Source of the DNA: Candidatus Iainarchaeum sp.
GTDB lineage: Archaea; Iainarchaeota; Iainarchaeia; Iainarchaeales; GCA-2688035
Direction of reading: 5' to 3'
Assembly: GCA_028713935.1 (NCBI GenBank)
Contig: JAQTNI010000012.1
Location: forward strand, 1-30,360
Length of the DNA stretch: 30,360 nucleotides
Shown: in pieces, positions 6,033-19,658 of the stretch
Position numbering within the stretch: position 1 is the first letter of the stretch
How the letters are laid out: every line of letters starts with the position of its first letter
Made by a program: the position numbers and the translations under genes
Notes under the pieces: generated by a model
Databases searched by the model: none
What the model saw: the letters and a program-made list of their open reading frames with translations, nothing else
What the model was told of the DNA's origin: nothing

Positions 6033-6104
6033 GCCTGTGTAGTTCAGTGATAGAATGCCATCTTGGTAAGGTGGAGGTCGAGGGTTTGATCCCCTCCACA
6101 GGCT
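6033..6104 (+). tRNA. tRNA-Thr(GGU)
   Basis: Acceptor GCCTGTG/CACAGGC plus T; D-arm GTTC/GAAT; anticodon stem CCATC/GGTGG with loop TTGGTAA (GGT); T-arm GAGGG/TTTGATC/CCCTC. No intron. Confidence 0.9.
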
Positions 6105-7249
6105 TTCACTTTTTTTAAATTTCTTGAATTTGAAAATCCAATGAGTTTCATCCATTTTTCTACTTGTTTATGGCCGTATACTTCAATGCAATAACTGTGC
6201 CTTTTGATATTGTGGTGCGCATAAAGAGGGAAATATTTTGAAAGGAATTCTTTCAACTGCAGAAACAATGGTTCGCTAACAGTCTGCAATGAGATTCTTG
6301 GATATGTTTTGTTGTAAATTTTTCTTTGGTCGAGGAAAACACAGCCATCTGTGTCAAAAATTCCTCGAATGGTGGCAAAAACAAATTTTTCTTCAGAATT
6401 CATTATTTTGTCAGGAATTTTTACCGTATAAGTTTTGGGGCCGATTGGAAAGCCGAATCTTTTTGTTAATAACATGAAAAGCTGCTTGGAATATAAATTC
6501 AAGTTCAATGCTTTGCTGTATTTTCGAAAATAATGTTTTGCATCAATATCAAAAACGTTTTTTGCAATCGATGACAACTTGATTAACAAATAATCCTTGT
6601 CAGAAACACTGTTTCCAACAATTTGAATATGATATTTTGATTTTCCTTGCTTTGTAACATAGCTATCTGTGCATCCATCTCCAATAAATGCGCCAATAAA
6701 TTCACAAAGGTCTTCCGATAAAGGCGCATTAAAGTTAACTGGTTCTGAAAGCTCCCTGCTCGCGACTTTTCTTTGAAACCCTTCCCTTAACCTTGCAATA
6801 ATTTTGTCAGAATTTTTGGCAAAATTATTTTTCCCGCCCTTTACAATGCCCCAGTTTCCTGACTTTTTTAAAATCAGGGGAGAAAAAGATTCTTGTTTTT
6901 CTTTTGGCAAAAGTGCGAGCATTGAATTGAATAGTTTTTCAGGCAGCAGTGTTTTTCCATATTGATATTTCTGAAATTGGCTTCTGTAAATATTAAACAT
7001 TCCAGCAAGCGCATCCCAGCTTGGAACGCCGCTTGCTTCTCTGACCGCAAAGAAAAACTGTTTTCTGGAATCATCACTAACAAAGCCAATTCTGTCTTGC
7101 ATAGCAGAACTTTCCGCTTTTTCTTTAATTATCCCTTGCGGGTTTGTATTTCCGCTATTCATAAGAATCACTTCCGCAGAATTCATTGAGAATCCAGATG
7201 TCCCTGTCATCAAGATCTTCTGGGTTGCTTGCAGCAAGCCTTTTGGCAA
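6044..7249 (-). CDS. free-standing double-motif LAGLIDADG homing-endonuclease-like protein with an N-terminal extra domain
   Basis: Two LAGLIDADG motifs: EFIGAFIGDGC (nt 6703-6671) and ATIRGIFDTDGCVF (nt 6379-6338). The last 20 or so codons run antisense through tRNA-Thr(GGU). The start is uncertain (7249, 7186 or 7162); see the upstream ORF 7155-7301. Confidence 0.8.
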   Translation of the reverse strand: MPKGLLQATQKILMTGTSGFSMNSAEVILMNSGNTNPQGIIKEKAESSAMQDRIGFVSDDSRKQFFFAVREASGVPSWDALAGMFNIYRSQFQKYQYGKTLLPEKLFNSMLALLPKEKQESFSPLILKKSGNWGIVKGGKNNFAKNSDKIIARLREGFQRKVASRELSEPVNFNAPLSEDLCEFIGAFIGDGCTDSYVTKQGKSKYHIQIVGNSVSDKDYLLIKLSSIAKNVFDIDAKHYFRKYSKALNLNLYSKQLFMLLTKRFGFPIGPKTYTVKIPDKIMNSEEKFVFATIRGIFDTDGCVFLDQRKIYNKTYPRISLQTVSEPLFLQLKEFLSKYFPLYAHHNIKRHSYCIEVYGHKQVEKWMKLIGFSNSRNLKKVKACGGDQTLDLHLTKMAFYH

Positions 7250-7470: not shown

Positions 7471-8001
7471 CTAGAATTTTAATTCTTTAAAATCGTGGAT
7501 GTTTAATCCATATTTTTTGTAAACTTCTTCAACGCCAATTGAAGTTGCCTGTGAACGGGAAAAGCCGAGCAGTTTCACTGTTTTTTCAATTTCTGTTTTG
7601 CTTTTGGCTTCTATTTCCAAATAGGGGGGAATTTTTGGCCAAAAGTCAATTTCAATTTCTGTTTTGCCAAGCTTATAACTGATTCTTTTGTTTTCCTGAT
7701 AGGCTTTTGCAAAAAAACCAAGCTTGTTCAGCAAAAGATTTGTTTTTTCAAAATCGCTTACAGTTATTTCAGTTTCTTTTGTGCCGTCAATTTTGTTGCT
7801 TTGGATTTCTTTTACTGCAAGAGTTGTTTTTTCACCATTGTAGCGCAGCCTTAACCAATAGCCTGTTTTTCCCGGCATTAAGTCATAAACAAACCTGTGC
7901 ATATTGCGTTCAAGCACTTTTTTTGCACCGATTTTTTTTAACCGCGCTTTTACGCTTTCAACATCAATGCCAAGAATTTTTACTTCAAGCTCAGTTTCCA
8001 T
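7471..8001 (-). CDS. CYTH domain protein (CyaB-like class IV adenylate cyclase / triphosphatase family)
   Basis: 176 aa with the N-terminal ELEVKI signature (ExExK), then WLRLRY, TEIEIDFWP and PYLEIEA, which fit the CYTH beta-barrel pattern. Confidence 0.75.
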   Translation of the reverse strand: METELEVKILGIDVESVKARLKKIGAKKVLERNMHRFVYDLMPGKTGYWLRLRYNGEKTTLAVKEIQSNKIDGTKETEITVSDFEKTNLLLNKLGFFAKAYQENKRISYKLGKTEIEIDFWPKIPPYLEIEAKSKTEIEKTVKLLGFSRSQATSIGVEEVYKKYGLNIHDFKELKF

Positions 8002-8115
8002 GGTAAAATAGGTTGCAGAATAGTATTAAATTTTTATCAAAAAACTGATTTTTAAAAAAACCGCAAGGGTTAAAAACCACTTAAGCCTTATAATAAACAA
8101 TTAAAAGGTGCTTTA

Positions 8116-8508
8116 ATGAAAATTCAGCCAAAAGAAAAAATGGTTTTTTTTGCAGTACTGCTGATTTTAATGATTGCCATTACTGGCTGTGTTGGCGGAG
8201 ATGCAAAAACACTTGAAAATGGCTGCAATCAATTGGAAGCAACTTTTGGAAATACTGATGGCGTGACAGAAGCAAAAACCTGTGTCCCGCCACAGGGAAG
8301 CCTGCTTTCTGATTTGGTTGCTTTCTCTGGGCAGGGAGATTCCACAAAAACTGCTTTTGTTGAGGCAACCTGCACGTATAACACTTGGCCTGCAAGCTGG
8401 TTCGCAAAATGGCAGATTCCAATAGTAACAGTGAATTCTTGCACTGATGGCTGCATAGTGAAGACAGATGGAGGCGCTGTTTGCGCTGAAAATTTTACTG
8501 CAACGTAA
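8116..8508 (+). CDS. Cys-rich secreted lipoprotein, paralog 1 of a 3-gene family
   Basis: Signal peptide plus lipobox (LMIAITGC). The mature part has 8 Cys after the lipobox Cys, in a pattern shared with the next two genes. SD AAGGTG (8105-8110). Confidence 0.65.
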   Translation: MKIQPKEKMVFFAVLLILMIAITGCVGGDAKTLENGCNQLEATFGNTDGVTEAKTCVPPQGSLLSDLVAFSGQGDSTKTAFVEATCTYNTWPASWFAKWQIPIVTVNSCTDGCIVKTDGGAVCAENFTAT

Positions 8509-8552
8509 TGCTTTGATAGGAATAATTGGATAATAAAAAAAAGGTGTTTTTT

Positions 8553-8996
8553 TTGAAAAAAAATTCTTTGAAAATTGCAATTGTTTTGCCTGTATTATTG
8601 GCAACAATTGCCTTGGCTGGTTGTGCTGGCGACCCTTTTCAGCAATCGCAGGCTTATTGTGATGCGCAAAGCCAGGCATATGGTGAAATTGCAAATATTT
8701 GCCTTCCGGCTGGCTCTCCCCAATTAAATGCTGCTGCGGGATTCAACCAAGCGCCTATTCCAACGTATGCAAGTGCAGTGCAGACCAAATGCGTATGGAA
8801 TCCTGGAGTTTTTGGAATTGGCAGCAGTTGGACTCTGACAATTCCTGTACTAAAGGAATGCACTCCAGACCAGTATGCTGGCTGCAAATTGGATTCTGAT
8901 GGAATAAATGCGGATTGTTATAACCCGACAAATGATGATGGGCATACAATCCCTCCGATTGACGATGGAACTGGCGGAACTTTGCCTGAAATGTAA
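8553..8996 (+). CDS. Cys-rich secreted lipoprotein, paralog 2
   Basis: The TTG at 8553 lies 6 nt after SD AAGGTG (8541-8546) and gives (M)KKNSLKIAIVLPVLLATIALAGC, a classic LAGC lipobox. The track ORF starts at 8526. The Cys pattern and the W-x-L/I-x-I/V-P/x-V motif are shared with its neighbours. Confidence 0.65.
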   Translation: MKKNSLKIAIVLPVLLATIALAGCAGDPFQQSQAYCDAQSQAYGEIANICLPAGSPQLNAAAGFNQAPIPTYASAVQTKCVWNPGVFGIGSSWTLTIPVLKECTPDQYAGCKLDSDGINADCYNPTNDDGHTIPPIDDGTGGTLPEM

Positions 8997-9053
8997 AAAC
9001 CAAAAACATTAAGAATAACCTGAAACATAATCAAAATTGAAAAAGGTGTTTGA

Positions 9054-9635
9054 TTGAACCAGAAAGGAATTGCCCCTGCAGTAATTGTTTTGGCTGTAAT
9101 TGTAGTTCTTGGATTTGCATGGCTGTTTGTTCTTCCAGCAGTAATGGATTTGGTTAATGGAACCTGCAATGCTTTGGAAGAAAAATATCCTAATGGCGAT
9201 GCGTGGGAAAATGTTTGCCTTAACCCGAATGATCAGGCAGCAAAAGATTCTTTGGCTGCATTCGGCGTGAATATGAATTCTTTGGCACAGGACAGGAACA
9301 GCATTGCAAAGGTTTCCTGTGTTAAAAGCACGAGTGCTTTGTGCCCAATAATTCCCTGCTGGCAATTGCCAAGCGCAGAAATAACTGTAACCTGCGAGCC
9401 TGGTGAAAGATGTGTTAAAGCTGACAGTGCGCAGGAGGCCGCATGCGAAGCAAATATAGCGCCATGCAATAACAATGGAACCTGTGATGCCTGGGAAGAC
9501 AGTTCAAATTGCCCTGCTGATTGTCTTGTAGAAGGGCCCTGCAATAACAATGGAATTTGTGAAAACGGAAGCAATGATACAAACGACATAGGGGAGAATG
9601 CTGCAAATTGCCCCAATGACTGCATAGAATTGTAA
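9054..9635 (+). CDS. Cys-rich paralog 3 with an archaeal class III (type IV pilin-like) signal peptide and two C-terminal CNNNGxC...NCPxDC modules
   Basis: TTG start 5 nt after SD AAGGTG. The N-terminus MNQKG/IAPAVIVLAVIVVLGFAWLF matches the archaeal pilin/archaellin N-terminal pattern (K/R-G followed by [IV]-[SA]-P-x-I and a hydrophobic helix). The core aligns with paralogs 1 and 2. Confidence 0.65.
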   Translation: MNQKGIAPAVIVLAVIVVLGFAWLFVLPAVMDLVNGTCNALEEKYPNGDAWENVCLNPNDQAAKDSLAAFGVNMNSLAQDRNSIAKVSCVKSTSALCPIIPCWQLPSAEITVTCEPGERCVKADSAQEAACEANIAPCNNNGTCDAWEDSSNCPADCLVEGPCNNNGICENGSNDTNDIGENAANCPNDCIEL

Positions 9636-9735
9636 TTTTTAAATTTCTTATTTTTGTTATTTTCTTGTTTTTATGCCGGTTTTTGGCATGCACAAAAAAT
9701 AAATAGCCAAAGGGACTAATTATCATTTGGTTTGC

Positions 9736-10419
9736 ATGGCTTTGAATGAAGGGACAATTGAATCTCTGGCTTTAAGGTATGTAAAGCCGGGAATGGTTTT
9801 GGCTCTGGGCACTTCAGGGCATTCTGAAACTTTCTTAAAAAAAATTGCTTTTGAAATTGAAGAAAAAGGCCTGAATGTAAGCGTTGTGCCGACTTCCCAC
9901 AGGATAGCTGAATTGCTTGCAAGCCTGAAAATTCCAGTTACTTCTTTAAATGAAAATGAAATTGATGTTGCTTTTGAATTTGTTTCACAGGTTGACAGGG
10001 ATTTCAATTTTGTAAAAACAGATTCAACAAGCCTTGTGCGCGACAAAATGATTGCGCAAAGCGCTGAAGAACTGATTGTTGTTGCGGGCAAAAAAGATTT
10101 TGTGGAAAGAATAAGCGGCACAATTCCTTTTGAAATAGTGCATTTTGGATGGAAACGCACAATCATACAGCTTGAAAAGCTTGGAGAAGCACACCTGAGA
10201 AAAATAGGCGGAAAGGAATACAGGACTGAATCAAACAACCTGGTTGCGGACGTAAAAATTGACGATATTTATGATTTGTATGAAATAGAATCACAGGCAA
10301 AAGAAGTTCCGGGAGTAATAGAAACAGGCCTGTTCATTGGCTATGCTGACAGGATAATCCTGCATAACCACGGCCTTGAAGTGAAAAGCAGGCTTGATTT
10401 TGAAAAAAGCTTTTCTTAA
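9736..10419 (+). CDS. RpiA-like protein (ribose-5-phosphate isomerase A fold) with substituted signature motifs
   Basis: Collinear with canonical RpiA: ALRYVKPGMVLALGTSGHSE corresponds to the GxGTGST region, FVSQVDRD to DGADE, VKTDSTSLVRDK to KGGGAALTREK, and GVIETGLF to GVVxxGLF. ATG at 9736; the track ORF starts at the TTG at 9727. Confidence 0.65.
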   Translation: MALNEGTIESLALRYVKPGMVLALGTSGHSETFLKKIAFEIEEKGLNVSVVPTSHRIAELLASLKIPVTSLNENEIDVAFEFVSQVDRDFNFVKTDSTSLVRDKMIAQSAEELIVVAGKKDFVERISGTIPFEIVHFGWKRTIIQLEKLGEAHLRKIGGKEYRTESNNLVADVKIDDIYDLYEIESQAKEVPGVIETGLFIGYADRIILHNHGLEVKSRLDFEKSFS

Positions 10420-10551
10420 AAAGAAAACCTTGGAAAAGAAAGATGCTCAGCATCTAGTTCGCTATGCTCGCAAAAGCCCTGAAAAATTGAAACGATTTCT
10501 TTTAAAAACCAGCCAAACAAAAAATAATTTGCATTATTGAGAGTGAAGACT

Positions 10552-10640
10552 GCCTCGGTAGCTCAGCCTGGTGGAGCGTTCGACTCATAGGTTTTTATTG
10601 AGAAATCGAAAGGTCGCGGGTTCATATCCCGCCCGAGGCA
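10552..10640 (+). tRNA. tRNA with CAU anticodon (elongator Met, or Ile2 if C34 is modified) with a 15-nt intron
   Basis: Acceptor GCCTCGG/CCGAGGC plus A; D-arm GCTC/GAGC; anticodon stem TTCGA/TCGAA with CAT at 10586-10588. The insert GGTTTTTATTGAGAA (10590-10604) follows position 37. T-arm GCGGG/TTCATAT/CCCGC. It lacks the initiator-type A1:U72. Confidence 0.85.
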
Positions 10641-10709
10641 ATTTTTTAATTATCTGCTTATCGCGCATGTTTACCAAAGATTTGGATTCTTTTCTTTTGG
10701 CAACCTACA

Positions 10710-10777: not shown

Positions 10778-13700
10778 ATGCCGGGAAGAATGGACAGGCT
10801 GCTTGCGCAAAAGCCGGACAAGGAATTTGAATTTGAGCCTACTTTGGCAAAAAGCCAAGGAGAAGGCTTTTCATGGCGGGTTTTGAAAAACAAAAAAATT
10901 GTTTTTGGCATTGCCCTTGCAGCAATAGCAATAGCTGCAGTTTTAACAGCGCTGTTTTTTGCTTTTCCAGCGCAGGAAGGAAATTTTGAAATTATTGTAA
11001 AAAACTCTGATGGAAGCGCGTTAAGCGGCATTGAAGTGAAATATTCTGTTGATGGGCTTGAAGCAACTGCAAAAACAAATTCTGGCGGAAAAATTTTTTT
11101 GCATGCCAAAAAAGACTCGGAAATTTCTGTTTTAATTGAACAACAAAGCATAAATGGCACTGATTATTCAGTTTATTCCTCTGATTTTGTTGTTGCGGAT
11201 TCTTTTTCAAAGGAAATCCTGCTTGAAAAGCTTGGCGAAACAATTGATGAACGAACAATTGTTTTTCAAAAAACAGACGGTTCGCGCATAACAGGAAAGC
11301 TTATTACAATCAAATTGTCCTGTGCAAATGGATTCAGGCTTGCACAGGAAACAGCAACTGATTCAGACAAAGACGGTCAAATAAAAATAGTGAAACCGGA
11401 AGAATGCAATATTCTTTCAGCAAGGCTGATTGCGCCTCTTGATTACAGGCAGGCAAATTTTACAATTGGCTCTTCTTCAAGCATTGTACAACTTGAAAGC
11501 AATTCAGAAGCCTCGCCAAAAGGCGAGATACGTGTTAAAATTGTTGATTCCGAAAACAATCTTGTTACTGCCACTGATTTTACTGTGCAGTTGATCGCTG
11601 CAGAAGGCTTTGTCCGGGATGAAAAAAAAACAGATGGCCGCGGAGAAATTGTTTTCACTGATGTTGAACTTGGAACCTATTTTATAAGCGCTTTTGATTA
11701 TGCGGGAGAATATGAAATAATGCAGGATTCGGCAGTTGTAATAAGCTCTGGTTTGGAACAGGAAAAAACATTGTTTGCTGCAAAATCCACTAAAGGCACA
11801 ATTGATGTTAGTGTAATTGACAAAGCCACAAAAATTGGCATTCCAAATGCAACAGTGCAATTGTTTGCAGCTTCCGGAGACCTTCTTGCGGAAGAAACAA
11901 CTGGAAGCGAAGGTTTCACAGTAAAATTTTCAGTGAAAGAAGAAGGCACTTACAAAGTGAGTGCAATGCAGGAGAATTATTTGCCGAATGAAACAACTGT
12001 TGAAACAAGGGGAGAAGCAACAATTGAGCTTGAGGAACTGACAAGCGGGAATTCAGGCATAATAGAGGTTAGCGTAGTTGACGAAGACGAATTGCCAGTG
12101 GAAAACGCAAAAGTTGTCCTCAAAAACCCTGCGGGAGAAACAATGCCCTATCCTGCAAAATACACTGATGCAAAAGGCATTGCAAAATTTTCAGGGGTTT
12201 CTGAAGGGGCTTATTATGCATATGCGGAAAAATTTCCCACATTTGGGGATAATTCTGCAGATGCAATGGAAATAGACATCAGGGGCAAAAACAATTTTAT
12301 TGTGCGGCTGGACATTGGCACTGCGACAATAAAAATAAGCGCTTTTGAAAGCAGTGAAATAATGCTTGAAGAGTCAGAGGCTGAAATTTATGCGGAAAAC
12401 GGGGAATTATTGCAAAGAATTGCAATGCCTGATGGCACAGCGGAATTTTCCACAAAGGCCGACAAAAAGGTTTTTGCAATAGCAAAGATGCCCGGCTATA
12501 ATTCTGTCCAGACAATTCCAATGCAATTGTGGCCCAATGAAACAATTGAATTCAATTTGCAGATGCGGCAAAAAAATTCAGGTGCTTTGCCTGAAATGAA
12601 GTTTGAAGGGATTTTTAATGGAAGCCAGAAAACAGGCATGCTGAAAGCGGGAAAAGAATACCTTGCATTGTTCAGCATTGAAATCCAGGAAAACAATGAA
12701 ATTTCAAGGGGAGGAATTCATTTTAGGGTTGGGGAAGAACAAAGCCTTGAAACAGAAAAAATTGCGATTACTGGCGCATTATTTGCAATGCCTGATTCTG
12801 TTTACGGCGGAAAAAGCTTTACTCCGAATCTCGGCTATGATGCAGACCTTTCAGATTCGATAACAGAGGCAAAATGGGTTAACATTGAATTTGTGCCTGG
12901 TTCGGAAGGCAAAAAATATTTTGTGGGCTTTGAATTCAAGGTGAAAAAAGAAACCCAGCCAAATGGCCTGCTTGCATTGCATTACAGGGCATGGTTTGAA
13001 AGCAATTCAGGAAAATTTCTGCGGATTCCGGAAGACTCTGAGTTGGGGGATTCTGAAAGCACTGCATCAAAACAGGGGTTGTATGCAAAGACACTTGATT
13101 TGGAGTTTGGAGAGGGAATTGACACTGACTGCGGGGAAAGCGTTTGTTACGGCAATGAATGGATTTTTGGCAACCATGAAAAAGAGCTGCAGAGGGAAAA
13201 TTATTCGCTTGGCCTTGACAGGGATTACAACCTGAATTTTGAAATAAAAAACAATTCCGATGCAGCAATTGAGAAGCCGGAAATTTCCATAATTGGAAGC
13301 AATGCGGAAGATGTGGAATTCAAAAACCTGATAGCTTACAATAAAGCAAAAAAAACATTGGAATCAAAAAAAGGAAACATTGAAAATTTTTCCCTTGATG
13401 GCATTGGACAGGGAGAAACAGTAAATTTCAATTTGCTTTTCACTCCAAAAAAACCCAGCCTCGGCTATATTGAAACAACAATTTCAAGCAATGGCAAAGA
13501 AATCTTTTCAGGAACAATCTGGGTTGACACACAGGCGGGAAAAACAATGGCCCTGGAAATAAAGCCAGAGGAAATTCCGGCTTTTTTTGAAGCAGACATA
13601 AATGCACTGGTTTCAACGGAAGACGAAGGGCCTGTGCAGGATGCTGAAATATGGATGACAAGGACTCTTGCTGACAATTCGATTGCAAAAGAAAAAGCAA

Positions 13701-16700
13701 ACACAAGCAGCAGAGGAGAGGCAAAATTTAAGTTGGCGGGTGCAATGCCAGGCACAAAAATTGTTTTTAAGGCATTAAAAGACGGCTATTATGATGAGCC
13801 GGTTGAAAAAATAATAAGTGAAAAAGTATTTGAAATTTCAGAGGAAGCGCTTGAAGCGCAGATAGACACAAAAGAAGACACGCAGGAAACTCTTAGCACT
13901 GCAATATCAAACCTTACTGCCGCTGAACTTGAAATTTTTTCTGTTTCAATTTCAGGAAGCACAAAAAGCCTGCTTGACAAGGAAGCAATGGACAATTTTT
14001 TCTCTTCCCTCAAAGGGACAAAAATTCAGGCATTGGAAAGCAAAACAATTGAAATGGTAAAAGTGCAATTAAGCCAAGGCACAGAAATTGAAAAAGACGA
14101 AACACTTGCCTTGCAGCTTCTTGTTACTGTTATAGAGCCGAAAACAGGCAAAAAATTTGATGCAAAAATTCCTTTGGCAGTAAAAATCAGGCCTTTTCCA
14201 ACAGCGGCAATGAGCTGCATAAAAGTCGACAAGCAGGAATGGCTTGGCAGCACAATAGGCAATCATGCAGTGCTGGAACTCGAAATGGAAAACACCTGCT
14301 CTGAAGAGGGAAAAAGCGAAGTACTGGCAAGGTTATTGGCAAAAACAGTTTGGGCTGAAAATTCAATTGGAATTGTGGAAATTCTTGAAGCGGATTCTCC
14401 CGATGGCGCAGCGGAAATTTTAGGCGAAAACAACTGGAGAACAGTGATGCAGGAAATAGGGGCGGGAAGAAAAATAAAAGTAACACTGGTTTTCACGCCA
14501 AAGCCGGAAACTCTGGGAAAAACAGCGGAATTCAAAATAATTCTTGACGGGCAGAAAGAAACAGAACGCGGATTAAAATTTGTAGGCAGCACTGAAATAA
14601 ATGCAAAAATAGACATTGCAAACATTGGGCAATGCATAAAAACAGACAAAAGCCTGCTTGAAATAAAAAAAGGCGCAAGCTCTGCGGATTTTTCAATTGA
14701 CACTACGGGCTGCCAGGCAGCAGTGGAAATAGGGTTTTGCAGGAATGATGATGGCTGCAAAGGCGGGGCAGCAGAGGGCACAATACAATTAAGCGCAAAA
14801 AGCATTATGCTTTCCCCTTCCAATCCAAAGGCAAAAATAATTGTTTCAAAAGGCTCTATTGCGGGAATGTACGGCGTTAACATTGAAGCAAAAACCCAGA
14901 ACAGCGATTGGGAGCAGATAAAAACAATTGATGTTTTAATAGAGCCGAATGACAATGCATTGTTTACTCTTGACAAATACGAATTTTCAATTATTGGAAA
15001 CAGCGCTAAAGACAGCGCAACAGCATTCAACCCGAATCTAAGCGAAAATGTTGAAGTGATTGCGCCTGTTGATTCCTGGTACCAGAGCGTGCAAAACACT
15101 GAAAGCTTTTTTGACCCAGAGCTTGCAGGGACAGGAAAAACCCATCTTGAACTTGCAAATGCAAAAATTGCAGCGGATTTGGCAAAACAAAAAATGGAAG
15201 AAATGGCACAAAAAGCATCAGGAGAAGCAGACAAAGGCCAACAGCTAAGCGATGCCGCAAAAAAAGCCCTTGAACAGGCAAAACAAGATTCAGACCAGGC
15301 AGACCAAAAGGCACAGGATGTCACTAGCCAGGCAGGGCAATTGGCATCACTCGCTGGGCTTCTTCTTGGGCAAGGCCAGGCTGTCGAAGCAGCAGTTGCT
15401 GCAAACCCATTCTGCAAAGCGGAATTGGTGGCAGCAAAAGCAATGAATAAGGCATTACTGACTGCAAAAACAGCTACAATGGGTGCAAACACTGGGGCAC
15501 AGGCAGCATCAAGCGCAACAAGCCAGGGAAAAAATAATTGCGAACAAGGCCAACAAATGGGCAATCAGGGGCTGGACAATGCTGTTCTTGCACAAAAAGG
15601 GCCTTGTGAAACACAAACAATTTCCAGCAGGGCAGGGGAAGGCGCGCAACAGTCTGCACAGGCAGCACAGCAAATGATGCAGGCGGCACAGCAGGACCAG
15701 CAATGCGGGCAGCAAATGCAAAATGCTGGAACACAATTCGCCAAGGTTGGAACAAATCTTGCGGGAACAGGGGCACAAATCGGGATAGTGGAAACACAAT
15801 CACAAATAATTGCGGCATGTGTGACTGCAGGGCCAGCCCTTACTGCATTCAAAACAAAATTTTATGCATTCAAAGCAACTGAAAACGGATTGACAAGCGC
15901 AAATGCTGCAGCGCAAAGCCAAGCTGAAACAGCAAAACAATCCGCTGACCAGGCAAACAATGCTGCCCAAGCAGCAAATAACCAGAATAATATTGCGAAT
16001 GACCAGCTGCAAAAGCTTTCTGTTGTTGAAACAAATGCAGAGGAAGCCGCAGGATTTGGAAAAGGAAGGACAATTGGAATTCTTGGCTCTTATGTTGGAT
16101 TGGCAACTCTTGTTGGAAGCTACAAGGGAAATGCATACAATGCATATCTTGGAAACTGCCCAAACGGCTTCAAAAGCACTCTGCCAGATTTTGTCACAAA
16201 CCTTAAAGAAGATTCTTCAGACATTGTTCTGGACAATCAGAATATTGTCGGAAACTGGAATACTGAAGAGGCAAAAATTTTTGGCGAATACGAAAGCCAG
16301 ACAGCTGGAATTTCCTTTGAAAACCAAAACCTTGAATCCGAAAAGCCAGTTTATGCTCTTGCAAGATTATTGGCTTACAGGCACAAGCACGTAGAGCCAA
16401 CAACGATAATAACAGGAACATATGCGGGTGCAGGAACAGCAGATGCATCGGCAGCAGTTGCAGGAACAAGCTTCGGGCCTTTCAATGTGCCAGATGAAGA
16501 AGAAAAAATGCTTGTTGAACAAAAATTCCACTTGAAATTCATTGCAGGCGAAAAAAAAGCCTCGCCAGCAGCAAATTCCGATGATGCCTGCTTGAACGGC
16601 GCAATGTTTGGCATTACAGGGGAAAAAGCACTGCCAAAAATAAAATTGAATTGGAACTGGAATGAAAGCGAAGGAATTTCAGAAGACAATTGCATTGCGG

Positions 16701-18286
16701 AAAACAGCAAAGCCATTTATTGTGATGCAGCGCAATTCAGCATAATGGCAAGCAAGCGCCTTAAAACACTGCAGGAATTCGTGGAAAAAAATTCTTCCAT
16801 AAGCTGCCCAACAAACAATGCCATTGAAAGCCTGAAATGGATTGTTGACAAATGGAACCCATATATCAATGAAATCGGAGGCCAGCAGATTCCAACAGAC
16901 CTGCAGGAACTGAACCCCGAATGCTGGATGCCAAAATCAACATTTATTTACGATGGCAAGCCAGCAATAAATTATTATGTTGAGGAAGCAGACAGCAAAA
17001 AAAGCGTTTCCTGGACAAGCAAAATAAAAAGTCCGGAAGGGCTTGAAAAATACATAAGAAGCAATGTCCTGCTCATAAAAGACGGTTATTCTGAAAATTT
17101 CCAGAAAGACTTTGCAAATTATTACAGCACAGCAAAATTAATGGATGCGCCCGAATGGTTTGTAAAAAATTCAAGCGGAAAATGGCTTGATTATTTCCTC
17201 AACAACGAAAAATTAAAATTCTCGCAAAAATTTTTGGATTCAACTGAAATGCCGAACGCAGGAATGTTTGAATCATTCTTCAACATTGATTTTGGGAAAA
17301 ACTGGGGATTTTTCAGCGAAGCAAAAACCCCGAAAGCAACAGTAAAAATAGAATTGAATTTCAAAAAAGAGCCTGAAGAAGGAAGCATGTTTTATTACCT
17401 GCCATTTGACGCGGAAATAGGATCGCAGGGAGGGGCAGGCAGGGAAGGTTATGGATTAAGTTATCAGAACAGCGAAAAAGAATTCCTTGTTGCAAATGCA
17501 AACAATGTGCCAATTTCAACAGTTTCAGGCAATGGCAGCGGAATTGCAGCGCTTTACACAAACACAACAGAAGACATAAGAATAACCAACAGCAGTTTTG
17601 CAAAAAGAGGCTTATTGCTCGGCATAAAAGAAACAGGAAGCCAGAATGAAAAACAACTGGATTTTTATCCCACAAACGCAACTCCGGCAATTGCAGAAAT
17701 AAGCTCTGAACAAAGCACAGTGCCTTTCAGCGCATATTACAAAGTCACTGAAGCCGGAGTTCCTGCAAAAGCAACTGAAAATTTTTCATTCTGGACAGCT
17801 GCAGGGGAATGCAAAAATTTCGATGAAAAGCCATTATTGGAAAAATTCAATTCCTTGCCTGACAGGTATGCGGAAGAGCTTGATTCCGCAGAACAAGCCT
17901 CGGATTCCTATGCTTTTGACTTTGAAAAAGCAGACAGAAGCGGCAAACTTTACCTTAAAACAATTTTTTACACTCCTGCAAGCAAGGCATATGCAGTCAC
18001 AGGAATTCTTAACCCTGACCCAATGCAAAAAGCTGCAATCACATTCAAAAGTGCAAACACTGGCTTCCAGGCAGGCATTGATCTTGATGGAACAGGGCAA
18101 AAATTCAACAACAGAAAAGCACAGGAAAATGCAGCAGGACTAGATAATCTTCTTGAACTTGTAAAAGAAAAAAGGGTTTGCATTACAAACAGCCAGGAAG
18201 AAACAAATCTCTGGTGGAACGAACTTCCCCTCCTAGAAACAGACACGGGCAATGGCTCAATAGCAGGCTTTAACGGAGAATGCTAA
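10778..18286 (+). CDS. giant (2502 aa) N-terminally membrane-anchored surface protein with CarboxypepD_reg-like beta-sandwich repeats, a Gln/Ala-rich helical module and a large uncharacterised C-terminal region
   Basis: Single uninterrupted ORF. TM anchor IVFGIALAAIAIAAVLTALFFAF (aa about 41-63). There are six tandem repeats (aa about 69-590) plus a seventh (about 930-1000), of the type IxVxVxD...PxxxAxVxL...TDxxGxxxF..ExGxY, e.g. IEVSVVDEDELPVENAKVVLKN...TDAKGIAKFSGVSEGAYYAYA. Q/A-rich segment at nt about 15148-16050. Many N-x-S/T sequons and paired Cys. Confidence 0.85.
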   Translation: MPGRMDRLLAQKPDKEFEFEPTLAKSQGEGFSWRVLKNKKIVFGIALAAIAIAAVLTALFFAFPAQEGNFEIIVKNSDGSALSGIEVKYSVDGLEATAKTNSGGKIFLHAKKDSEISVLIEQQSINGTDYSVYSSDFVVADSFSKEILLEKLGETIDERTIVFQKTDGSRITGKLITIKLSCANGFRLAQETATDSDKDGQIKIVKPEECNILSARLIAPLDYRQANFTIGSSSSIVQLESNSEASPKGEIRVKIVDSENNLVTATDFTVQLIAAEGFVRDEKKTDGRGEIVFTDVELGTYFISAFDYAGEYEIMQDSAVVISSGLEQEKTLFAAKSTKGTIDVSVIDKATKIGIPNATVQLFAASGDLLAEETTGSEGFTVKFSVKEEGTYKVSAMQENYLPNETTVETRGEATIELEELTSGNSGIIEVSVVDEDELPVENAKVVLKNPAGETMPYPAKYTDAKGIAKFSGVSEGAYYAYAEKFPTFGDNSADAMEIDIRGKNNFIVRLDIGTATIKISAFESSEIMLEESEAEIYAENGELLQRIAMPDGTAEFSTKADKKVFAIAKMPGYNSVQTIPMQLWPNETIEFNLQMRQKNSGALPEMKFEGIFNGSQKTGMLKAGKEYLALFSIEIQENNEISRGGIHFRVGEEQSLETEKIAITGALFAMPDSVYGGKSFTPNLGYDADLSDSITEAKWVNIEFVPGSEGKKYFVGFEFKVKKETQPNGLLALHYRAWFESNSGKFLRIPEDSELGDSESTASKQGLYAKTLDLEFGEGIDTDCGESVCYGNEWIFGNHEKELQRENYSLGLDRDYNLNFEIKNNSDAAIEKPEISIIGSNAEDVEFKNLIAYNKAKKTLESKKGNIENFSLDGIGQGETVNFNLLFTPKKPSLGYIETTISSNGKEIFSGTIWVDTQAGKTMALEIKPEEIPAFFEADINALVSTEDEGPVQDAEIWMTRTLADNSIAKEKANTSSRGEAKFKLAGAMPGTKIVFKALKDGYYDEPVEKIISEKVFEISEEALEAQIDTKEDTQETLSTAISNLTAAELEIFSVSISGSTKSLLDKEAMDNFFSSLKGTKIQALESKTIEMVKVQLSQGTEIEKDETLALQLLVTVIEPKTGKKFDAKIPLAVKIRPFPTAAMSCIKVDKQEWLGSTIGNHAVLELEMENTCSEEGKSEVLARLLAKTVWAENSIGIVEILEADSPDGAAEILGENNWRTVMQEIGAGRKIKVTLVFTPKPETLGKTAEFKIILDGQKETERGLKFVGSTEINAKIDIANIGQCIKTDKSLLEIKKGASSADFSIDTTGCQAAVEIGFCRNDDGCKGGAAEGTIQLSAKSIMLSPSNPKAKIIVSKGSIAGMYGVNIEAKTQNSDWEQIKTIDVLIEPNDNALFTLDKYEFSIIGNSAKDSATAFNPNLSENVEVIAPVDSWYQSVQNTESFFDPELAGTGKTHLELANAKIAADLAKQKMEEMAQKASGEADKGQQLSDAAKKALEQAKQDSDQADQKAQDVTSQAGQLASLAGLLLGQGQAVEAAVAANPFCKAELVAAKAMNKALLTAKTATMGANTGAQAASSATSQGKNNCEQGQQMGNQGLDNAVLAQKGPCETQTISSRAGEGAQQSAQAAQQMMQAAQQDQQCGQQMQNAGTQFAKVGTNLAGTGAQIGIVETQSQIIAACVTAGPALTAFKTKFYAFKATENGLTSANAAAQSQAETAKQSADQANNAAQAANNQNNIANDQLQKLSVVETNAEEAAGFGKGRTIGILGSYVGLATLVGSYKGNAYNAYLGNCPNGFKSTLPDFVTNLKEDSSDIVLDNQNIVGNWNTEEAKIFGEYESQTAGISFENQNLESEKPVYALARLLAYRHKHVEPTTIITGTYAGAGTADASAAVAGTSFGPFNVPDEEEKMLVEQKFHLKFIAGEKKASPAANSDDACLNGAMFGITGEKALPKIKLNWNWNESEGISEDNCIAENSKAIYCDAAQFSIMASKRLKTLQEFVEKNSSISCPTNNAIESLKWIVDKWNPYINEIGGQQIPTDLQELNPECWMPKSTFIYDGKPAINYYVEEADSKKSVSWTSKIKSPEGLEKYIRSNVLLIKDGYSENFQKDFANYYSTAKLMDAPEWFVKNSSGKWLDYFLNNEKLKFSQKFLDSTEMPNAGMFESFFNIDFGKNWGFFSEAKTPKATVKIELNFKKEPEEGSMFYYLPFDAEIGSQGGAGREGYGLSYQNSEKEFLVANANNVPISTVSGNGSGIAALYTNTTEDIRITNSSFAKRGLLLGIKETGSQNEKQLDFYPTNATPAIAEISSEQSTVPFSAYYKVTEAGVPAKATENFSFWTAAGECKNFDEKPLLEKFNSLPDRYAEELDSAEQASDSYAFDFEKADRSGKLYLKTIFYTPASKAYAVTGILNPDPMQKAAITFKSANTGFQAGIDLDGTGQKFNNRKAQENAAGLDNLLELVKEKRVCITNSQEETNLWWNELPLLETDTGNGSIAGFNGEC

Positions 18287-18646: not shown

Positions 18647-19330
18647 ATGAAAAAGCAAAAACAAATCCTAATTCAGGACAACAAAATAGAGGAAAAAACA
18701 GGCGAAATCCAAAAAATCTGGCAAAATGCAAAAATAAAAAGCGATGCAAAAAGCCTTGCAATTTTTTTGGGATTATTCTCGCTTGCAGTCGGAGGCAGGG
18801 TTGCACTGCAATACGTTCCAAGTGTGGAACCCATAATTCCAATTGCAATTCTCGCAGGGCTCTTATTTGGCATGAAAGAAGGCGCTGGCTTAGGTGCAGG
18901 CGCATTTGTGGCAAGCAATTTTTTTATATGGGGTTTGCAGGGGCCATGGACAATTTTCCAGGCATTGGGAGCAGGAATTCCAGGCTGCCTTGCAGGGGCA
19001 TATGGAAAAATCAAAAAGCCAAAAACAAGGGACCTCGTTTTATTAAGCCTTGCGGGAACAATTATTTTTGAAATAACAATGAACATTTCAGGTGCAGCAA
19101 TGGGAATTGGAGTGCTGGGGGCATTCTCGCTTTTCACTCTGCCATTGTATTTCGTCACTTCGGCGCCATTTTCAATTGTTCATGTGCTAAGCAACCTTGT
19201 TTTTGCAAGGGCACTGGCACCATTATTAAAATTAAGGAGGCAAGACAATGAATTCCAAGTTGTTTCCATTAGCAGGCATTCTCCTGCTGGCACTTCTACT
19301 CTTAGGGTGTACAAGCACAGGGCAGACTAG
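18647..19330 (+). CDS. polytopic membrane protein, possibly an ECF-type substrate-capture (S) component-like protein
   Basis: 227 aa with about 5-6 hydrophobic helices. The GRVALQYVPSVEPIIPIAILAGLLFG pattern recalls DUF6580/S-component proteins that often neighbour DUF4430 genes (from memory, unverified). The 3' end overlaps the next gene by 83 nt. Confidence 0.45.
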   Translation: MKKQKQILIQDNKIEEKTGEIQKIWQNAKIKSDAKSLAIFLGLFSLAVGGRVALQYVPSVEPIIPIAILAGLLFGMKEGAGLGAGAFVASNFFIWGLQGPWTIFQALGAGIPGCLAGAYGKIKKPKTRDLVLLSLAGTIIFEITMNISGAAMGIGVLGAFSLFTLPLYFVTSAPFSIVHVLSNLVFARALAPLLKLRRQDNEFQVVSISRHSPAGTSTLRVYKHRAD

Positions 19331-19658
19331 CCTGATAACAGCGGAAAAACAAGTAGCAACAATAAAAGCAATTGATTCTGAAGGAAAAGAAATAGTAAAC
19401 AGGACAATTTCAATTGAAAAAGGAAAAAATGCTTTGGAAGCATTCAGGCAGGTTGCAGGCGTTGAAGCAAAAACCTATGTCGGAATGGGCTCCCTGGTCA
19501 CTTCAATAAACGGAATAACGCCCGATTCAGAACACTATTGGGGCTTGTACATAAACGGAGAATTCGCTGACAAGTCAATTGACGCATACACAATTGACAA
19601 GGACATTACAATTGAAATGAAAATGGAAAAAATTGATTTCAGCAAAATGGGCGGCTAA
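19248..19658 (+). CDS. lipoprotein with a DUF4430-like (transcobalamin-like beta-grasp) domain
   Basis: Strong SD AAGGAGG 6 nt upstream. Signal peptide plus lipobox LLLLGC. The motifs TSINGI, YWGLYINGEFA and SIDAYTI are typical of DUF4430. Confidence 0.65.
   Translation: MNSKLFPLAGILLLALLLLGCTSTGQTSLITAEKQVATIKAIDSEGKEIVNRTISIEKGKNALEAFRQVAGVEAKTYVGMGSLVTSINGITPDSEHYWGLYINGEFADKSIDAYTIDKDITIEMKMEKIDFSKMGG

Follow-up and report, generated by a model that had tools for sequence, protein, structure and literature searches.

Archaeal substrate-binding proteins use several types of membrane anchor, lipobox and class III signals among them (PMC3387779). A lipobox, as defined in PMC12462473, closes an N-terminal signal peptide with L, V or I at position -3, A, S, T, V or I at -2, G, A or S at -1 and Cys at +1. 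Many lipoproteins are predicted in DPANN archaea, and these archaea have the AliA family of lipidation enzymes (PMC12462473). Class III signals are recognized by signal peptidase III (SPase III), for which positions -2, -1 and +1 are critical (PMC3387779), and they also occur on non-pilin surface proteins, such as the sugar-binding proteins of Sulfolobus (PMC3387779, PMC2910488). Here, we compare with these systems three tandem genes, g1, g2 and g3, at positions 8116-9635 of a 30,360-nucleotide stretch of Candidatus Iainarchaeum sp. DNA (contig JAQTNI010000012.1; the whole stretch is referred to below as the window). We propose, with somewhat better than even confidence, that the trio is a single operon encoding a surface module that lies close to the membrane and is stabilised by disulfides.

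The genes and the parts of their products are as follows; G1, G2 and G3 denote the subgroups to which the three belong.

8116-8508, + strand: g1 (G1), 130 aa; signal peptide of the Sec/signal peptidase II type (residues 1-24), then a six-Cys alpha/beta ectodomain of ~100 aa
8553-8996, + strand: g2 (G2), 147 aa from TTG 8553; signal peptide, six-Cys ectodomain and Pro/Gly/Asp-rich tail
9054-9635, + strand: g3 (G3), 193 aa from TTG 9054; C-terminus EL
9147-9452, + strand: eight-Cys core of g3, residues 32-133
9465-9623, + strand: two copies of a four-Cys module, CNNNGxC...CPxDC, in g3, residues 138-190

RESULTS

The three products are paralogues of one ectodomain

A sequence-only reading of the window had described the three products as tandem, small, Cys-rich secreted paralogues, and our shuffling tests, alignment and subgroup profiles bear this out. 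Local alignments of the mature parts were compared with 2000 composition-preserving shuffles per pair. The g1-g2 score of 69 (shuffles, 29.2 +/- 5.0; z = 7.9) was equalled by none of the 2000, and the g1-g3 score of 54 (28.0 +/- 5.0; z = 5.2) by a single one. Direct similarity between the mature domains of g2 and g3 was not significant (score 25 versus 28.9 +/- 5.1, equalled by 1624 of 2000 shuffles). BLASTP gave E = 2e-7 for g1-g2, to which the signal peptide contributes, E = 0.15 for g1-g3 and E = 0.97 for g2-g3. When orthologues from the four other lineages that carry the family were included, six Cys and one Trp proved collinear and invariant across the 15 aligned sequences (C37, C56, C86, W99, C109, C113 and C123 in g1 numbering). 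The collinear mature motif proposed earlier is shared in part only. Its NGxCNxLE segment is present in g1 and g3 and missing in g2, which has QAYCDAQS, and WQ(I/L)P is replaced by WTLT in g2.

Paralogy was also assessed with hidden Markov models (HMMs), each built from one five-sequence subgroup and scored on the other two subgroups together with 3000 shuffled decoys. The G1 HMM ranked all 10 members of G2 and G3 above every decoy. The G3 HMM did the same for 7 of 10 (four G1 and three G2 proteins), and the G2 HMM placed 4 of 10, all from G1, above the best decoy. Since the G1 HMM recovers every G2 and G3 protein above the decoys, these comparisons identify g1, g2 and g3 as true paralogues, and G1 is the subgroup that links the other two. 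If the products instead resembled one another only through Cys content and signal peptides, the non-significant g2-g3 alignment would be expected, as would the outcome of hhalign on two-sequence orthologue profiles, where the signal was too weak to decide homology. We find this explanation barely credible, given that the shuffles preserve composition and were applied to mature parts, that the Cys and Trp positions are collinear and invariant, that the HMM of one subgroup retrieves the others, and that the order of predicted secondary-structure elements is alike in g1 and g3.

The ectodomain is predicted to be disulfide-bonded and close to the membrane

AlphaFold2 (AF2) models of g1 and g3 were built from a 13-sequence alignment. 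The g1 model has a predicted local distance difference test score (pLDDT) of 79, with 83-91 in the core; the g3 core reaches about 84-94, and its C-terminal module stays below 60. Both models run through a helix, a strand and a second helix, followed by four strands in g3 or three long strands and one short strand in g1. In the g3 model, residues 7-44 form one unbroken helix, in which the hydrophobic stretch merges with the first domain helix. Foldseek searches returned nothing at E<0.1 from the PDB or BFVD: the best PDB match of g1 was angiogenin (E 0.14, TM-score <0.3), and that of g3 had E 2.1, with no pilin found. Sequence profile searches with the trio ectodomain gave no significant match in Pfam, NCBIfam or the PDB.

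The number of mature Cys, counted without those of the lipobox, signal peptide or transmembrane (TM) segment, is always even, being 6 in G1 and G2 and 8 in two variants. The G3 core has either 6 Cys or 8, the extra pair (C97/C102, in LCPIIPCW) being gained or lost together. Because the counts are even and the extra G3 Cys come and go as a pair, the pattern fits a fully disulfide-bonded extracytoplasmic domain, with three putative disulfides in the common core. Only 7-12 residues separate the anchor from the first conserved Cys, and with so short a tether the domain would sit on the membrane surface.

g1 and g2 carry lipoboxes

The lipoboxes were read directly from the sequence.

8179-8190, + strand: g1 lipobox, I-T-G-C25
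8613-8624, + strand: g2 lipobox, L-A-G-C24

The g1 signal peptide consists of MKIQPKEK, 15 hydrophobic residues and I-T-G-C25, and that of g2 of MKKNSLK, 16 hydrophobic residues and L-A-G-C24. Both agree with the lipobox definition and have the positively charged n-region and short h-region (about 7-20 aa) of such signals. The two assignments made by the sequence-only reading are thus canonical, and a lipobox is kept in 9 of 10 orthologues (4/5 in G1, 5/5 in G2). On the strength of these motifs, we regard g1 and g2 as putative lipoproteins. To our knowledge, lipidation has never been demonstrated in any DPANN archaeon.

Compared with the archaeal lipobox lipoproteins of the AliA/AliB pathway in Haloferax volcanii, g1 and g2 show the same K-rich n-region, 13-16-residue h-region and [LVI][ASTVI][GAS]C motif. 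They differ in that their mature domain lies outside every described lipoprotein family and in that one orthologue, the G1 protein of locus L006, has lost its lipobox. Elsewhere in the window, a DUF4430 protein gene (19248-19658) overlaps a putative membrane protein gene (18647-19330) by ~80 nt; its orthologue in locus L002 has the lipobox LLGC, which fits frequent lipoproteins in the lineage. The presence of different anchors within one family had been called unusual, which does not hold against archaeal substrate-binding proteins, the best precedent, where lipobox and class III signals are both found (PMC3387779).

The g3 N-terminus: plain anchor or class III signal

The third gene has a different N-terminus.

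9054-9068, + strand: N-terminal pentapeptide MNQKG of g3
9069-9146, + strand: uncharged hydrophobic helix of g3, 26 residues (6-31)

The protein begins MNQKG-IAPAVIVLAVIVV..., and the sequence-only reading had taken this for a class III pilin-type signal. Part of that claim stands: the N-terminus is distinct in 5/5 G3 proteins, all of which read MN[QR]KGI followed by 20-26 uncharged hydrophobic residues. K4-G5/I6 places a charged residue at -2, Gly at -1 (where G or A is accepted) and a permitted residue at +1 in all five, and the ~20 hydrophobic residues expected directly past the cleavage site are present as well. The known prepilin processing sites KGQV, KAIS and RALS are similar in type (PMC4371748). 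A relaxed class III scan of ~90 kb of the window and related loci matched G3 proteins only, the n-region is far better conserved than the core, and in the AF2 model an N-terminal helix of 38 residues is followed by a head with a beta-sheet. The reviews that name -2, -1 and +1 as critical also record non-pilin class III proteins (PMC3387779, PMC2910488). On this evidence, a PibD/FlaK-type peptidase could remove MNQKG, and mature g3 could form a short pilus- or bindosome-like oligomer with lipid-anchored g1 and g2 at its base, a possibility that we entertain tentatively and rate well short of even.

Several observations speak against class III processing. Pro occupies +3 in 3/5 G3 proteins, and another has Cys/Phe at +2/+3. 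Under a FlaFind pattern of I, L, M, V, T, A or S from +2 to +4, the I-A-P-A of g3 would fail at Pro+3 and only I-A-S-V of P0010 would pass. Conservation within G3 is lowest in the hydrophobic segment (mean pairwise identity 31%, versus 36% for the core, 70% for the C-terminal module and 90% for the n-region), unlike in filament-forming pilins, which conserve theirs (PMC4371748). No Peptidase_A24 prepilin peptidase, pilus ATPase or platform gene appeared among the Pfam matches of open reading frames (ORFs) in the window and the syntenic loci. No pilin is among the Foldseek matches, and the n-region of G2 (MKKN) is about equally conserved without any peptidase site. Finally, the closest relative, locus L014, has no G3 gene; the window, L002 and L006 have one each, and L003 has two. 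Low conservation of the hydrophobic segment is what one expects of a plain anchor, and on balance we lean, by a modest degree, towards a plain signal-anchor.

Release from the cell would be a third outcome: if g3 were cleaved by Sec/signal peptidase I (SPI) and freely secreted, the trio would not be uniformly tethered. The family evidently tolerates release, as the G1 protein of L006 has a canonical A-Y-A/Q SPI-type site, and small residues follow the hydrophobic stretch in P0010 and P0012. We consider secretion of g3 very improbable, because the 22-26-residue hydrophobic stretch exceeds a typical SPI h-region, no AxA-like site is conserved across G3, and the AF2 helix runs unbroken into the domain.

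A more elaborate scheme can be built on class III processing. Here, G3 would be a lipoprotein ectodomain converted to an SPase III-processed form, and the trio a minimal bindosome- or pseudopilus-like assembly in which G3 helices are bundled in the membrane and the lipid-anchored paralogues docked to them, perhaps for host contact via the four-Cys module. We find this scheme doubtful. Like the class III sugar-binding proteins of Sulfolobus and their bindosome, g3 combines a positive -2, Gly -1, hydrophobic +1 and ~20 hydrophobic residues with a globular surface protein, and those proteins likewise have relatives elsewhere with lipid or TM anchors (PMC3387779, PMC2910488). It differs from the bindosome in having no Bas/pilus assembly or prepilin peptidase genes nearby, in Pro at +3 and in a domain unrelated to substrate-binding proteins. 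Type IV and archaeal pilins share with g3 a long (in g3, predicted) N-terminal helix, hydrophobic and then amphipathic, that enters a beta-sheet head, together with small size and disulfides. However, g3 has no pilin similarity by Foldseek (E>2) and has an extra helix between strands 1 and 2, its hydrophobic helix is not conserved, and its paralogues have a lipoprotein signal instead. Preferring the plain anchor, we picture g3 as a signal-anchored protein with its ectodomain outside.

g1, g2 and g3 probably form one transcription unit

The following elements accompany the coding sequences.

8062-8082, + strand: promoter-like element CGCAAGGGTTAAAAACCACTT, in which a purine-rich stretch precedes an A/T-rich, TATA-like box, ~35-55 nt before the g1 start
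8103-8110, + strand: Shine-Dalgarno site AAAAGGTG of g1, 5 nt 5' of the ATG
8540-8546, + strand: Shine-Dalgarno site AAAGGTG of g2, 6 nt 5' of TTG 8553
9041-9048, + strand: Shine-Dalgarno site AAAAGGTG of g3, 5 nt 5' of TTG 9054
9636-9686, + strand: terminator-like tract of four T5 runs, 3' of the g3 stop

The longest ORF for g2 begins at TTG 8526. We prefer TTG 8553, which is almost certainly the true start, because GGTG lies 6 nt upstream, orthologues start with MKKN(S/F) at this point and the public gene call P0004 has the same start.

The common Shine-Dalgarno context noted in the earlier reading is confirmed, at a distance of 5-6 nt from each start codon. The window contains four copies of AAAGGTG, 3 of them before the trio genes and the fourth before rpiB at 137, and most other window genes are without such a site. 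The g1 motif also stands 5' of the L002, L014 and L003 orthologues, and the TTG start of g3 with its Shine-Dalgarno site is kept in L002. The earlier suggestion that this identity is a scar of local duplication is rejected: it is a ribosome-binding site conserved in orthologues, no DNA repeat links the genes, and the subgroups predate the five lineages.

The core of the promoter-like element, CGCAAGGnTTAARAA, is kept upstream of the G1 gene in 5/5 lineages and may be the promoter. Oligo-T is an established transcription termination signal in archaea, and the T-run cluster at 9636-9686 probably ends the g1-g2-g3 unit. The spacers are 44 nt (g1-g2) and 57 nt (g2-g3) long. Given these short spacers, a strong Shine-Dalgarno site for each gene, the conserved upstream element and the T-runs after g3, co-transcription of the three genes as one operon is probable.

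The family is small, old and fast-evolving

When 1.84 billion representative proteins were searched exhaustively with a profile, only 12 cluster representatives matched at E<=1e-3, all of which fall into three orthologous subgroups matching g1, g2 and g3; further members were read from syntenic loci. Word-index searches with g1 and g3 returned only themselves and one orthologue, and the alignment query returned 5 proteins. Scanning metagenomes with the G3 alignment added no lineage; the matches were unrelated proteins that share the C-terminal four-Cys module. The family is known from five related Iainarchaeales-like lineages, each time directly upstream of rpiA.

Window: one G1, one G2 and one G3; next come rpiA, a tRNA gene and a giant gene
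L002: one G1, one G2 and one G3; next come rpiA and the giant gene
L003-L005: G1, G2 and two G3 in tandem; next comes rpiA
L006-L013: one G1, one G2 and one G3; next come rpiA, in some a LAGLIDADG gene, and the giant gene
L014: G1 and G2, with neither G3 nor a G3 remnant; next comes rpiA
Orthologues of g1 (G1): P0005, P0006, P0007 and L006:6721-7179
Orthologues of g2 (G2): P0008, P0009, P0011 and P0013/L006, all with a lipobox; P0004 is the window g2 product

Judged by RpiA, the nearest relative is L014, at 87% identity. The order G1-G2-G3 beside rpiA is fixed in the window, L002 and L006/L009, and L003 adds the second G3 copy. Each subgroup retains its own N-terminus, anchor type and C-terminal tail, and no DNA-level repeat joins g1, g2 and g3 within the window. 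Because each subgroup has its own conserved N-terminus, the triplication is, as judged from the sequences, ancient and older than the split of the five lineages. Between lineages, RpiA is 71-87% identical and the trio proteins 33-58%; the trio proteins evolve about twice as fast as the adjacent housekeeping gene. Altogether, the ectodomain is a previously unannotated, structurally unmatched family limited to a narrow Iainarchaeales-type DPANN group. One G1 orthologue, L002:199-1236 in an Iainarchaeum metagenome-assembled genome, has a 210-aa C-terminal extension, Thr/Asn-rich with repeated Cys-containing units, that is absent from the window g1.

The C-terminal tails differ between subgroups

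The G2 tail is Pro/Gly-rich and closes with an almost invariant tripeptide, PEM, which is replaced by REM in one lineage (8976-8996 for the C-terminus of the window g2); this PEM/REM tripeptide is shared by P0008, P0009, P0011 and L006:7198-7650. G3 ends in the module CNNNGxC(D/E)...CPxDC-x-EL, which is 70% conserved. The two module copies in g3 (9465-9623) are 87% identical at the DNA level, and this internal repeat is the only recent duplication at the locus.

The g3 module matches repeats in 18 unrelated metagenome loci at 35-55% identity, and multiple copies of it are found within large secreted proteins encoded on unrelated high-GC metagenome contigs (L016:3581-4720, L018:2063-5764 and L019:3773-4831). 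It has no Pfam or NCBIfam model. The CGNGxCExGE..NCPxDC repeats of large secreted bacterial proteins are of the same type as CNNNGxC(D/E)...CPxDC; the difference is that in g3 one or two copies are appended to the C-terminus of a very small protein.

Neighbouring genes and the giant protein

The genes that flank the trio include the following.

137-598: rpiB (RpiB/LacAB-type)
9727-10419: rpiA, with a start probably at ATG 9736 rather than TTG 9727
10778-18286: giant gene, 2502 aa; N-terminal TM helix, CarboxypepD_reg, Big_1, Ig-like/SpaA-like domains and a Gln/Ala-rich low-complexity centre

The giant protein is of about equal length in L002, and a 2468-aa gene call in L009 overruns the end of the locus. 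The sequence-only reading had linked the trio to this protein, and one could imagine g1, g2 and g3 as its dedicated accessory, whether anchor, chaperone or adaptor: in all five lineages the trio is followed by rpiA and then by the giant gene, and both the trio products and the giant protein are envelope proteins. We judge this improbable. The lineages are closely related (RpiA 71-87%) and collinear as far as hisS and beyond, so that descent explains the order and synteny with the giant gene gives no specific functional link. Moreover, rpiA, a tRNA gene and, in some lineages, a mobile LAGLIDADG homing-endonuclease gene intervene, T-runs follow g3, and the giant protein lacks the CNNNGxC module.

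Some further features of the neighbourhood were recorded. Both RpiA-type and RpiB/LacAB-type ribose-5-phosphate isomerases are encoded within 10 kb of a small genome. The tRNA gene between rpiA and the giant gene (10551-10641, 89-91 nt; 57 bits with Rfam, left unassigned by ARAGORN with "anticodon at") is probably an intron-containing archaeal tRNA. A bacterial (CPR) origin of the window is rejected on account of this tRNA, of its archaeal-type genes and of its closest public relative, a metagenome-assembled genome labelled Candidatus Iainarchaeum sp. A LAGLIDADG homing-endonuclease-like gene (6044-7249, - strand) abuts or overlaps tRNA-Thr (6033-6104, + strand). Free-standing LAGLIDADG genes also lie at L006:860-1945 and 9134-10051, each followed by a 48-aa ORF, and such a gene is present in L010 but not in the otherwise collinear L009. 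This variable presence between collinear loci suggests that the LAGLIDADG genes are mobile insertions. Just upstream of the trio, one lineage has a HicA/HicB toxin-antitoxin pair (L006:6155-6621; L009:8928-9394) where the window has a CYTH-domain gene (7471-8001, - strand).

DISCUSSION

From the genes, their paralogy, signal motifs, conservation and synteny, we infer lipidation, topology, disulfide bonding and co-function of the trio as follows. The g1-g2-g3 operon would be specific to Iainarchaeales-type DPANN and encode three anciently diverged paralogues of one ~100-aa alpha/beta ectodomain, locked by three putative disulfides, or four in the g3 core. All three products would be exported by Sec and tethered by their N-termini to the outside of the cytoplasmic membrane. 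For g1 and g2, the lipobox Cys would be lipidated via an archaeal AliA/AliB-type pathway, and g3 would be held by its 22-26-residue hydrophobic helix, which is predicted to continue into the first domain helix. The three ectodomains most likely cooperate, without being redundant, in an exposed module of the envelope next to the membrane, and they may form a hetero-oligomer. In such a module, g3 would be an accessory member of variable copy number, contributing the widespread four-Cys adhesin-like module. By analogy with described systems, the trio may be ordinary archaeal surface lipoproteins together with a signal-anchored, or possibly SPase III-processed, paralogue.

Four points weigh against this picture. 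The leader of g2 contains a run of eight T (8547-8554), so that co-transcription is probable rather than certain. The G1 protein of L006 has an SPI-like ...GAYA/QP site in place of the lipobox, and tethering is therefore not obligatory for every family member. The conservation of the G3 n-region (90% for MN[QR]KGI) goes beyond what a plain signal-anchor needs and matches the -2/-1/+1 rule. Lastly, no homologue gives any functional clue.

The family bears on the little-studied cell surfaces and host interactions of a narrow DPANN group. If g3 is not cleaved, the trio would amount to a common kind of fast-evolving envelope operon, with no more than local interest. The locus provides a compact natural test set for archaeal targeting, since one domain occurs with a signal peptidase II lipobox in two subgroups, with an SPI-like signal in one orthologue and with a TM/SPase III-like helix in the third subgroup. 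If a prepilin peptidase does cleave g3, the locus would illustrate how readily surface proteins exchange lipid anchoring for pilin-type routing or the reverse, and a lipoprotein-to-prepilin conversion of G3 would represent a natural interconversion of routing within one DPANN operon.

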